Source: a bacterium (lineage in GTDB: Bacteria; Babelota; Babeliae; Babelales; JAUWHS01). Taken from it: a stretch of DNA of 63,172 nucleotides. Made by a program: the position numbers and the translations under genes. The notes beneath the pieces were generated by a model. It saw nothing but the letters and a program-made list of their open reading frames with translations. It ran no database searches and was not told the origin of the DNA. The stretch lies in NCBI GenBank assembly GCA_043818275.1, contig JBDRFY010000062.1:1-63172 (forward strand). The letters are read 5' to 3'. This document shows, piece by piece, positions 57,342-59,246 of the stretch. The first letter of the stretch is position 1. Each line of letters begins with the position of its first letter.

Positions 57342-59246
57342 TTATTCAACAGTTACTGATTTTGCCAAATTCCTGGGCTTATCAATCGGGCAGCCCAATT
57401 GCCTTGTTATCTGATAAACAAAGAATTGCATCAATCCTGTCATCGCAAGTGGAGCAAGCATTTGATTAACTTTTGGCAAAATAAAATAATTATCCGCCAA
57501 ACTTATCAAATCTTCTTGACCTTCAAATGCAAAAACTAACAAATGTCCATTTCTTGCCTTTACTTCCTGAGCATTACCAACCAATTTTTGGTATAAAAGC
57601 TCATCCAAAACAGAAAACATAACAACCGGAGTTTTTTCATCAATTAATGCAATTGGACCATGCTTTAACTCTCCAGCCGGATAACATTGCGCAAAAATGT
57701 ATGATATCTCTTTTAATTTTAACGCCGCCTCCATCGCGAATGGATAACTTATGTGTCTGCCTAAAAAGATAAATTTTTCATATTTTAAATAGAAAGGAGC
57801 TAATTTCTGGGTAACCTCAATTTTGTAATTTTCAATTGAGCTTTCCAAAACTTCTGCCGCAACTAATAAATCACTTTCAGCATTTTTCATTTGTTCATCA
57901 GAAATCAAACTTTTTTGCAATGCAATTTTATTTGCAAGCCAAAAAAGAGACGCTAGCTGAGTTGAAAAGGCTTTTGTGGAAGCAACAGAAATTTCCGCGC
58001 CTGCTTTCATGTGTAAAAAACCATCTGCTTCGCGCACCATTGTGCTTGAAATTACATTAGTCAAAGCAACTGTAGGCACTTTAAATTCTTTTACAAGTCT
58101 TAACGCTTCAAGAGTGTCTGCAGTTTCTCCGGATTGGGAAACAAAAATAAAAAGAGAATCATCTGATTTGAAAAAAGGCATGTATCTAAATTCAGAAGCC
58201 AAATAAATACTTGCAGGAATCTTGCAAATACTTTCAATAAAAAATTGAGCGATTCTGCATGCGTGCCAGGATGTTCCAGCCGCAACTAAATTAATTTTTT
58301 TTAAATTTTTAATTTGGCTAATTGTAAGACCAACTTTGCCAATCAATTCATTTTCTCGCTTGTCCGGCGAAGCCTTGGCGAAGACGGAAAGGGTATTACT
58401 AAAATGATTTACCGTATCGGTAATGGCCCGTTTTTGTTCATAAATTTCTTTAAGCATGTAATGTTCAAATCCCTGTTTTGATGTATCGCTAAATTTATGA
58501 TCTATTTTTTTTGCAGTTACAAAAATTTCATTACCATTAAAATCAAAAATATCAAAAGAATCTTTTTTTAAAATTGTAATGCTATCTTCGGGTAAAAAAA
58601 TGACATTTTGAGTTTTATCAGAAAAAGCTAAAAAATCTGACGCGACAAAATTTTCATCTTGCCCAACCCCAACAACTAAAGGAGATTTACGCCTAACTAA
58701 AATTAACTCTCCTGCCCTTCGACTCGCATTTGCTCGCTCAGGATGAACGGGAACCATTAAAATCACAAAAGCGTAAGCACCTTTTAATTTTTTAACTAAT
58801 TGTTTTAGCGCCTCCTTTTTTTTATATTTTTTTAAAAGTTCTTCAAGTAAATGTGCTACTATTTCTGTATCTGTATCTGAAACAAATTTGTGTCCTAAAC
58901 TAATAAGCTCTTTTCGCAATTTTTGATAATCTTCGATTATTCCATTGTGAACCACCGCAATTTTTTGATTGCAGTCAAACTGAGGATGCGCGTTTATCTG
59001 ATTCGCAACTCCATGAGTTGCCCAGCGGGTATGACCAATTCCGGCAAAACCATCTATTCCATTTTTTTGCAAACTTTCATCAAGTTTACTTACACTGCCA
59101 ACTTCTTTTACAAATTCCAAAAAATCTTTTTCCGTTACACATGTAAAACCGGCCGAATCATAACCCCGATATTCCAGTCTTTTCAAACCATCAACAATAA
59201 AATCCCGACATTTTTTCGTTCCAACATAACCAACAATTCCGCACAT
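57342..59246 (-). CDS. glmS: Glutamine--fructose-6-phosphate aminotransferase
   Basis: The start is placed at MCGIVGYVG (catalytic Cys2), preceded by GAGGA. Two SIS domains and the terminal ...AKSVTVE. It contains two GC-rich in-frame islands. Confidence 0.9.
   Translation of the reverse strand: MCGIVGYVGTKKCRDFIVDGLKRLEYRGYDSAGFTCVTEKDFLEFVKEVGSVSKLDESLQKNGIDGFAGIGHTRWATHGVANQINAHPQFDCNQKIAVVHNGIIEDYQKLRKELISLGHKFVSDTDTEIVAHLLEELLKKYKKKEALKQLVKKLKGAYAFVILMVPVHPERANASRRAGELILVRRKSPLVVGVGQDENFVASDFLAFSDKTQNVIFLPEDSITILKKDSFDIFDFNGNEIFVTAKKIDHKFSDTSKQGFEHYMLKEIYEQKRAITDTVNHFSNTLSVFAKASPDKRENELIGKVGLTISQIKNLKKINLVAAGTSWHACRIAQFFIESICKIPASIYLASEFRYMPFFKSDDSLFIFVSQSGETADTLEALRLVKEFKVPTVALTNVISSTMVREADGFLHMKAGAEISVASTKAFSTQLASLFWLANKIALQKSLISDEQMKNAESDLLVAAEVLESSIENYKIEVTQKLAPFYLKYEKFIFLGRHISYPFAMEAALKLKEISYIFAQCYPAGELKHGPIALIDEKTPVVMFSVLDELLYQKLVGNAQEVKARNGHLLVFAFEGQEDLISLADNYFILPKVNQMLAPLAMTGLMQFFVYQITRQLGCPIDKPRNLAKSVTVE
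58355..58394. repeat. GC-rich repeat word island inside glmS
   Basis: cttgtccggcgaagcc (58359-58374) is the reverse complement of GCTTCGCCGGACAAG. Compare gcttcggaggacaag at 1433-1447 and gcttcggcggacagg at 51483-51497. It encodes ...SVFAKASPDKRE... Confidence 0.6.
58709..58755 (+). repeat. Family-1 module inside glmS, antisense to the mRNA
   Basis: cccttcgactcgcatttgctcgctcaggatgaacggg encodes VPVHPERANASRRAGE, in a loop that by recollection is shorter in E. coli GlmS. Confidence 0.75.

Follow-up and report, generated by a model that had tools for sequence, protein, structure and literature searches.

The glmS gene of a Dependentiae (TM6) genome carries, in frame, a short GC-rich island that is very probably one member of a dispersed repeat family, short, palindromic and non-coding, of the repetitive extragenic palindromic (REP) or miniature inverted-repeat transposable element (MITE) type. 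The phylum follows from the best homologs, which bear the names Candidatus Dependentiae, Babeliales or TM6. The DNA analysed, hereafter called the window, is a stretch of 63,172 nt and the only part of the source genome that was included. The gene and the repeat copy inside it, hereafter called the module, are located as follows:

57342-59246, minus strand: glmS coding sequence (glutamine--fructose-6-phosphate aminotransferase), 634 aa counted from MCGIVGY
58715-58750, minus strand: module copy in glmS, 36 nt, GC-rich, in frame

The glmS gene and its module

The start MCGIVGY sits within a 644-codon open reading frame (ORF) of the minus strand, and the encoded protein aligns over its full length (residues 1-633) with E. 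coli GlmS structures at an E-value of about 1e-129. Pfam domains GATase_6/7 and two SIS domains were identified, and the protein keeps all columns that are invariant across 72 homologs, the N-terminal Cys included; glmS is presumably essential in this genome. On the sense strand the module reads CCGTTCATCCTGAG-CGAGCAAATGCGAG-TCGAAGGG, the inner 14 nt between CCGTTCATCCTGAG and TCGAAGGG being CGAG-CAAATG-CGAG, and its termini match the ends of the repeat family exactly at 14/14 bases (5') and 8/8 bases (3'). Together with adjacent bases the module encodes VPVHPERANASRRAG.

An earlier note on this DNA had pointed to a GC-rich island within the minus-strand glmS, read as VPVHPERANASRRAGE. The 37-mer that it quoted (CCCTTCGACTCGCATTTGCTCGCTCAGGATGAACGGG) is found once, at 58715-58751 on the plus strand, its range of 58709-58755 adding a few flanking bases, and the island does stand out by composition, with a GC content of 58% in the module, 34% in the rest of glmS and about 31% in the window. 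The note had also described the module as palindromic, which is true of the family, whereas the glmS copy itself no longer folds: it has no stable hairpin, and its RNA fold is no better than that of shuffled sequences (z=0.06). The copy is a singleton and not part of an inverted doublet. A profile built from 21 distinct short forms of other phyla (nhmmer) detects it with E=3.4e-4.

A second GC-rich island was observed in glmS at 58352-58394 (minus strand), in the hypervariable inter-domain linker, with the sequence ACCCTTTCCGTCTTCGCCAAGGCTTCGCCGGACAAGCGAGAAA (TLSVFAKASPDKRE). It is common to the closest relative (locus L001, 1659-1711) and missing from GlmS proteins at 74-76% identity, and it resembles window 1407-1460 and 45300-45360 as well as repeats in the foreign locus L225. 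A second family of GC-rich repeats may be represented here by an in-frame copy.

Evidence for insertion into glmS

The site of the module is occupied by 16 residues (VPVHPERANASRRAG-E) in the window protein and by 6 in its orthologs, a net gain of 10 aa that is also seen in the MAFFT alignment with Dependentiae GlmS proteins, and in the HMMER alignment H165-P166-D167 of E. coli GlmS is followed by a gap of 9 residues, in good agreement with the earlier note, which had put the loop at about 10 aa less in E. coli. When the 60 closest Dependentiae GlmS proteins were aligned together with E. coli GlmS, the columns of VPVHPERANA were filled only in the window GlmS and in its closest relative, P0002; the other 58 proteins and E. 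coli have gaps there. Unique insertions of at least 8 residues were found among 120 retrieved Dependentiae GlmS proteins in these same two proteins only. The ortholog alignment proposed in the earlier note thus returned repeat-free GlmS proteins that lack the peptide, and with the frame intact, the ORF-preserving insertion suggested there describes the site well.

The relative P0002 is 82% identical to the window GlmS and carries the segment APARPECSPKSRVLDGTKENVS (+22 aa). Its DNA, locus L001, comes from an independent Logan assembly (SRR31636562) and holds a 67-nt module, CCGCTCGCCCTGAG-TGTTCTCCGAAGTCCCGTGTCTTGGACGGGACGAAGGAGAATGTA-TCGAAGGG, which folds strongly (-31.5 kcal/mol, z=-3.76). 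The 5' junctions of the two glmS modules are the same to the base and lie in the same frame (PARPE vs PVHPE). The next relatives, L002 (GCA_030605785.1) and L003/L004, with GlmS identities of 76% and 74%, have empty sites. These comparisons support an inserted repeat copy, and not a native loop, as the origin of the segment; in the simplest history, the insertion would date to the common ancestor of the window genome and L001, after the split from the next relatives.

The window and L001 modules differ by a 31-nt internal gap and a 5-nt gap past the 3' end, together 36 nt or 12 codons, and the inner 14 nt of the window copy align to the 3' part of the L001 core. The window copy appears to be a shortened form of the 67-nt module that L001 retains. 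Both gaps flank the retained 8-nt end and either one by itself would put the gene out of frame, so that one complex event, or a replacement, is a more probable course of the remodelling than decay in steps. The module ends are identical at 20 of 23 positions between the two glmS genes, while cores and flanks have diverged; identity at four-fold sites between the window and its relative is 0.53 for glmS and 0.47 for the HAS-barrel gene described below.

Predicted effect on the GlmS protein

The AlphaFold model of the window GlmS, for which the alignment of the 72 homologs served as input, has a mean predicted local distance difference test (pLDDT) score of 86 and compares with E. coli structures 2j6h/1jxa at a template modelling (TM) score of 0.84-0.87, and its glutaminase domain compares with 1xff at a TM score of 0.96 and a root-mean-square deviation of 1.9 A. 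In the model, a strand at residues 155-164 is followed by coil (165-180) and a second strand (181-187), and the pLDDT drops to 58 at residues 171-180 and to below 50 at 174-176, with values above 90 in the blocks flanking the dip. The inserted segment is thus predicted to form a low-confidence coil in an otherwise canonical GlmS fold, extending a beta-hairpin turn in the glutaminase domain that corresponds to E. coli M161-T168. To our knowledge, none of the residues of this E. coli turn is catalytic.

Copies of the module in the window

The window was scanned for the 5' arm CCGYTCRYCCTGAG with at most 3 mismatches, followed within 90 nt by TCGAAGGG with at most 1 mismatch. Ten copies were found, against a mean of 0.04 in 50 shuffles; a strict pattern gave 5 matches in the window and none in 100 dinucleotide-preserving shuffles. 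The related copies named in the earlier note (at 3989, 52360 and 19484, and in the arms of two MITE-like elements) are all present. Apart from the glmS copy, the features are:

3988-4021, minus strand: intergenic single module with a short inner hairpin, 3 nt downstream of the stop of ORF 4024-4374
7517-7714: MITE-like inverted doublet, intergenic, arms 7535-7561 (plus) and 7670-7696 (minus)
18704-18771, plus strand: in-frame module in rpsF (18647-19288, minus strand), 68 nt, antisense, 23 residues
19488-19525, plus strand: intergenic single module between rpsF and a LexA-like gene, -15.4 kcal/mol, z=-2.5
22602-22681, plus strand: in-frame module in the gene of a HAS-barrel protein (22298-22993), 80 nt, read PVRPACPSKSRFEAGRRLEEPKGHLEG
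52360-52405, minus strand: intergenic single module with an AT-rich inner hairpin, between the CTP_transf_3 gene 51553-52320 and ORF 52436-53665
57135-57303: MITE-like inverted doublet, arms 57140-57166 (plus) and 57272-57298 (minus), AT-rich spacer between them

The gene at 51553-52320 encodes a kdsB-like cytidylyltransferase of the CTP_transf_3 family. The doublet at 57135-57303 lies 39 nt downstream of the glmS stop codon, and its 43-nt arms are 86% complementary; the whole doublet folds as single-stranded DNA into a long hairpin at -44.9 kcal/mol (z=-10.7). Terminal inverted repeats of 43-44 nt with 77-86% complementarity are found in both doublets of the window, the spacers of which are 77% identical, and the profile from other phyla matches the doublet arms at E=6.7e-5 to 6.3e-4.

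Most copies share a common predicted fold, in which a 5' tail of 9 unpaired nucleotides precedes an outer stem (CCCUGAG/CUC-GA-AGGG) with an inner hairpin, the sequence of which varies from copy to copy. The z-scores were -2.2 to -2.5 for 4 of the 9 folded copies, -3.35 for the rpsF copy and -3.76 for the L001 glmS copy; three copies (3985-4024, the window HAS-barrel copy and L005) had no significant fold, with z from -0.4 to -1.2. Motifs CGTAG/CGAAG are internal to the modules and bracket the inner cassette on both sides; the glmS copy has CGAG...CGAG. A hammerhead-like core (CUGA...GAA), judged by eye, was considered and rejected as its spacing and stem II pairing fail across copies.

Other in-frame copies

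Three in-frame copies are present within 63 kb, out of the 10 copies overall. The HAS-barrel module is missing in 48 of 50 aligned orthologs. Its window copy contains a nested 42-nt hairpin cassette, CGAAGTCCCGT..CGGGACGAAG, and the same hairpin is carried by the L001 glmS module. The nearest HAS-barrel relative, P0122 (71% identity), is encoded at locus L005 of the same Logan sample as L001 and has a module of 38 nt with junctions identical to those of the window on both sides, so that the window copy equals the L005 copy plus the 42-nt internal cassette. A TCCGAAAA-like sequence is duplicated on either side of the insertion (window 22575-22705 and L005 1883-1975), seen in the proteins as SEK...SEN (L005) and SKK...SEK (window), while orthologs have a single YSEK. 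The duplicated TCCGAAAA resembles a target-site duplication, in conflict with the other sites, where such duplications are lacking.

The hairpin CGAAGTCCCGT-N(5-9)-CGGGACGAAG also occurs alone in 75 metagenome stretches (L249-L323) with GC contents of 33-67%, usually inside a further GC stem, and in some contigs (L307, L310 and L263) it is arrayed in tandem with a spacing of about 81 nt. The hairpin behaves as a repeat family in its own right.

The rpsF module lies in the acidic C-terminal tail of ribosomal protein S6 and forms a hairpin of -30.4 kcal/mol (z=-3.35); the S6 tail of relative L006 has no module. A reading of ORF 18647-19288 as a LexA-like paralog was ruled out by alignment, which identified ribosomal protein S6.

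In a contig of a more distant Dependentiae lineage (L248, ENA ERZ23498652) a module in reverse orientation, CCCCTCGATACAATTTTTTCTAAAGAAAAAATTACTCGGGATGAGCGT, is found at 5526-5573 in a HAS-barrel gene, where it is read as PLDTIFSKEKITRDER. It sits in the same HAS-barrel loop in the opposite orientation and is an independent insertion. All six in-gene copies examined (two in glmS, three in HAS-barrel genes and one in rpsF) are stop-free and leave their host ORFs open, and the net lengths measured were +30, +66 and +42 nt. In-frame copies of the module family probably exist in other phyla as well.

Two observations concern in-frame insertions elsewhere. A P-type-ATPase-like ORF of L121 (minus strand, start near base 17) contains an in-frame module doublet, ...PVRAEPVEAVSGQREETLRQAQGER..., and L002 4289-8026 (GCA_030605785.1) encodes a GyrB of 1245 aa with a Pfam intein-splicing domain match, so that a housekeeping gene of this clade carries an in-frame selfish insertion of a different kind.

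Distribution across phyla and viral contigs

With one genome taken per species, the pattern CCCTTCGA-N(3-33)-CTCAGGRYGARCGG matched at least 120 stretches from many phyla, with about 17 chance matches estimated for the whole collection, and the module termini occur in at least 120 viral-contig stretches. The check for further motif copies that the earlier note had suggested hence gave 10 copies in the window and many more in other genomes, and the family is not particular to this lineage. Listed among the genome matches are Burkholderiales, Sphingomonadales, Methylococcales, Rhodanobacter and Dehalococcoidia/Chloroflexota, and further Binatia, cyanobacteria, Myxococcaceae and others. The commonest foreign form is CCGTTCGCCCTGAGC(T/C)TGTCGAAGGG, and a Sphingobium copy (L063, CCGTTCGCCCTGAGCGAAGTCGAAGGG) differs from window 57272-57298 at 1 of 27 bases. 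Inverted doublets are the usual arrangement of the copies in the foreign loci, where 53 of 106 adjacent pairs are '+-' at 0-150 nt. Longer foreign forms, seen in several phyla, contain a GC hairpin with CGNAG on both sides.

Rfam searched over the whole window at gathering thresholds returned six tRNAs only and no match to the module, and at E<=10 the regions around glmS, with its downstream doublet, and around a typical foreign doublet had no matches but spurious ones to hairpins of plant miRNA precursors. The module thus has no Rfam family, and no published name for it was found: one set of peptide strings typical of translated copies gave no papers and a second set gave AntiFam-related papers only, the AntiFam paper itself does not mention the module family, searches with the module DNA strings returned primer noise only, and Dependentiae combined with palindromic gave nothing relevant. 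Translations of this repeat, such as PFVLSLSKH, VRPELVEG, FDKLRMNG and LRQAQGER, are familiar as spurious 'hypothetical proteins'.

Mobility and proposed mechanism

Near-identical copies are found at non-orthologous loci, namely window 52360-52405 and L001 667-712. The latter lies in the rpsI-glmS spacer, where the window has no module. No module copy was found in about 70 kb of relatives at 74-76% GlmS identity (L002, L003, L004, L006 and L007).

The rpsI-glmS spacer of the window contains a perfect 26/26 inverted repeat, TTGTCATCCTGAACTTGTTTCAGGAT, at 59335-59360 (plus) and 59446-59471 (minus), 85 nt apart. Each arm is a small hairpin, and the pair is in the same place as the L001 module, a place that is empty in L002/L003. 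We considered these arms as decayed module copies and did not count them, as their sequence is distinct and bears only weak likeness to the 5' half of the module (TCATCCTGA.CTTGT).

We propose that the repeat consists of conserved ends (5' CCGYTCRYCCTGAG ... TCGAAGGG 3') around a variable hairpin cassette, and that a copy entered the beta-hairpin turn of the glutaminase domain at E. coli residues ~161-168. The segment would be transcribed and translated through as a passenger loop that is tolerated and not useful. Selection would act only as a filter, by which in-frame, stop-free copies in permissive loops or tails persist inside genes. After insertion, the window glmS copy would have shed 31 nt of the hairpin core and 5 nt past the 3' end with the frame kept, a loss that would have removed the strong hairpin from this copy.

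How the elements move can be addressed more tentatively. They might spread in trans by an enzyme encoded outside the window, and the inverted doublets and CGNAG-bracketed cassettes recall REP/REPIN elements moved by HUH transposases of the REP-associated tyrosine transposase (RAYT) or IS200-605 type. It is also conceivable that the conserved ends are kept by element activity or gene conversion and not by drift, such maintenance being hinted at by ends that are 20/23 identical despite a four-fold-site identity of 0.53.

No RAYT (Y1/HUH) gene was found beside the window modules, between distant module pairs or recurrently in 120 foreign loci, the source genome being covered over 63 kb. The window ORFs that flank modules include, by Pfam, RbfA, a permease, CTP_transf_3, an EPSP_synthase-family protein (PF00275) and a prepilin peptidase. 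Between distant inverted module pairs lie ordinary genes, coding for a glycosyltransferase-like membrane protein or a TldD-like protein, or unrelated ORFs, and no autonomous parent element was found there. Among 285 foreign copies (97 doublets and 188 singles) no target-site duplication signal rose above control, and none is evident at glmS.

Several points weigh against the view of the island as a mobile repeat copy carried in a tolerated loop. Pfam identified no transposase among the 10 window ORFs flanking modules, none was present between inverted module pairs 1.1-2.3 kb apart at three foreign loci, and no recurrent transposase family emerged near modules when ORFs of at least 120 aa from 120 foreign genome loci were clustered. 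The TCCGAAAA duplication at the HAS-barrel site, if it is one made on insertion, does not fit HUH-type transposition. The history of the glmS site appears more complex than simple decay, given that the 31-nt and 5-nt changes cannot come singly in a frame-bound gene, and the end conservation of the window copy could in part be ordinary codon-level constraint, the mean nucleotide identity of the gene being about 0.81. Finally, the placement of the segment in a loop is taken from predicted secondary structure and pLDDT.

A broader reading, which we consider rather unlikely as a whole, would join these elements into a cross-phylum selfish DNA element without its own transposase, with active end maintenance, cassette docking and horizontal acquisition. 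The ends would then be maintained inside housekeeping genes via homing or re-insertion into existing copies or via gene conversion, and the core would be a docking site where CGNAG-bracketed hairpin cassettes come and go, which would suggest an HUH-type single-strand mechanism in trans. Dependentiae would have gained the module horizontally, possibly in amoebal hosts or, since the module is common in viral contigs, via phages. If this were true, the module would remodel surface loops of the core proteins GlmS, S6 and the HAS-barrel protein.

Alternative explanations

The glmS and HAS-barrel modules could have been gained independently in the two relatives, through site targeting or loop tolerance, with the window glmS copy a separate, shorter member of the family. 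The inner parts and 3' junctions of the two glmS copies differ, and their 3' ends are in different frames; the same HAS-barrel loop was hit separately, in the opposite orientation, in L248; and, with synonymous sites near saturation, ends kept as well as these would be expected of young insertions. However, the glmS 5' junction is identical to the base and in the same frame, both HAS-barrel junctions are identical with the flanking TCCGAAAA-like duplication included, and the inner 14 nt of the window copy find their counterpart in the 3' part of the relative's core. Independent gain is thus improbable compared with inheritance of a single insertion.

It is quite improbable that the segment has been co-opted, either as an mRNA or DNA structure (for regulation, pausing or protein binding) or as a new functional loop of GlmS. 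It is missing from most Dependentiae GlmS proteins, which manage without such a segment, the hairpin is gone from the window copy, the loop is predicted at low confidence, and beyond its ends the peptide is unconserved between the two relatives and differs in length by 12 aa. What speaks for co-option is that, between the two lineages, conservation is higher at the element ends than at synonymous sites, that the cross-phylum conservation suggests recognition by some factor, and that intergenic copies are often just downstream of genes, like REPs (PMC3733652).

The module could also remain untranslated, if it were cut from the mRNA or skipped by the ribosome, or if glmS were a pseudogene. The relative's copy would form a -31.5 kcal/mol hairpin in the mRNA, and a GC-rich palindromic island in AT-rich coding sequence is the setting in which translational bypassing has been described; ribosome skipping is the case for the GC-rich 'byp' insertions in yeast mitochondrial genes and for T4 gene 60. 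Still, neither bypass nor excision would need the six in-gene copies to be stop-free and their ORFs open, the glmS frame is restored by a compensating 5-nt change, and the ORF is full-length with conserved catalytic columns, all of which makes this explanation highly improbable. An intein, a self-splicing intron or a curated RNA was ruled out: the 36 nt (12 codons) of the module do not suffice for an intein or a group I/II intron, Pfam found only the GATase and SIS domains, and there was no Rfam match.

Least of all does the segment appear to be a native lineage-specific GlmS loop that resembles the repeat by chance or through local GC-rich codon usage; although the loop sequence varies among orthologs and E. 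coli H-P-(D/E) aligns with the module-encoded HPE, this is extremely improbable in view of the columns empty in 58/60 orthologs and E. coli, the 22 terminal bases that match the repeat exactly where 0 such matches are expected by chance, the full hairpin-bearing module at the same site in a relative and the independent profile match (E=3.4e-4).

Other repeats in the window

Apart from the module family, a third repeat family was noted at 5598-5657, 5772-5822, 51254-51313 and 51457-51518, with the core CCCCGT(A/T)AGGGG...ATAGCCTCGGGTTTTAACC(C/A)GTGGAT; two of its copies, separated by 109 nt and inverted relative to each other, lie between paralogous ORFs. Diverged tandem paralogs with 71-84% DNA identity are found at 4024-5538/5898-7445, a pair with no Pfam match, and at 19571-20281/20718-21548, a pair of LexA-like proteins with helix-turn-helix and peptidase S24 domains that is also duplicated in relatives. 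Within ORF 52436-53665 there is a 78-nt tandem repeat (53282-53437, 76% identity), and within ORF 45735-47861 an exact 37-nt direct repeat, 66 nt apart (45980-46082).

Comparison with known systems

As an inserted repeat copy that would be translated in frame, the glmS module has well-known counterparts. Rickettsia palindromic elements (RPEs) are palindromic repeats found in frame inside Rickettsia genes (Ogata et al., 2000, 2002), as two later articles describe (PMC10969869; PMC3733652), and intragenic palindromic repeats have been reviewed (PMC10969869). Di Nocera et al. (2013; PMC3733652) document in-frame intragenic GTAG/CGTC-tagged REPs in several species besides Rickettsia. The earlier note had likened the glmS island to RPEs as best known from Rickettsia; the likeness gains from the two further in-frame copies in the HAS-barrel gene and rpsF, whereas such repeats are known beyond Rickettsia (PMC3733652).

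Like RPEs, the modules are multi-copy palindromic repeats in an AT-rich obligate intracellular host, they lie between genes and in frame in unrelated housekeeping genes with fold-compatible peptide additions, and no associated transposase was found. They differ in size, with 27-80 nt against about 100-150 nt for RPE-1 and the protein-coding families, which places them outside the RPE size range, and in their host, Dependentiae/TM6, and have GC-rich, conserved ends around a swappable or nested hairpin cassette. In addition, the module is found in many phyla and viral contigs and is not genus-restricted, and the comparison with RPEs is one of behaviour and size.

The REP/BIME/REPIN group, as described in PMC3733652, shares with the module imperfect palindromes of 20-40 nt, often arranged as inverted dimers 1-100 nt apart, which lie mostly just downstream of ORFs with some wholly inside them and encoding 20-30 aa; families are common to distant species, and some REPs are nested in other palindromes. 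In contrast, the CGTAG/CGAAG motifs of the module are internal, no defining terminal tag was recognised, and its 14-nt 5' arm is largely unpaired in the predicted folds. The module motifs do not appear in the text of Di Nocera et al. (PMC3733652), with whose 28 consensus families the comparison was by text.

With MITEs such as Correia/NEMIS, ERIC and RUP (PMC10969869) the doublets share a length of about 170-200 nt, terminal inverted repeats, an AT-rich core and long hairpins, and some of these MITEs fuse in frame with host ORFs. However, we know of no parent insertion sequence for the module, its single copies, at 27-46 nt, are much smaller than typical MITEs, and target-site duplications are not consistent, with 1 such case, at most resembling a duplication, against none in the 285 foreign copies.

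Yeast mitochondrial GC clusters are short mobile GC-rich palindromes in an AT-rich genome that are non-coding or skipped by the ribosome. These clusters and the 'byp' insertions resemble the modules as GC-rich palindromic islands in protein genes of an AT-rich genome; unlike them, the in-gene modules keep the frame and are stop-free, which points to read-through translation.

We therefore file the module as an intragenic REP/MITE-like element of the general kind and in no named family, since its size is not that of RPEs, neither a REP tag nor a RAYT was found, and no MITE parent or regular target-site duplication emerged. The phenomenon itself is known; what stands out is the Dependentiae host, the occurrence in three genes within 63 kb and a cross-phylum repeat for which no published name was found. 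Selfish DNA inside protein genes would thereby be extended from Rickettsia to another obligate intracellular phylum, Dependentiae/TM6, and linked to a widespread repeat that is near-identical between an endosymbiont-like genome of 31% GC and Proteobacteria/Chloroflexota of 60-70% GC. Such islands can mislead gene callers and protein-family alignments, and they mark permissive loops in essential enzymes. With filled, empty and different-length sites in close relatives, the module offers a natural system for following insertion, decay and maintenance.

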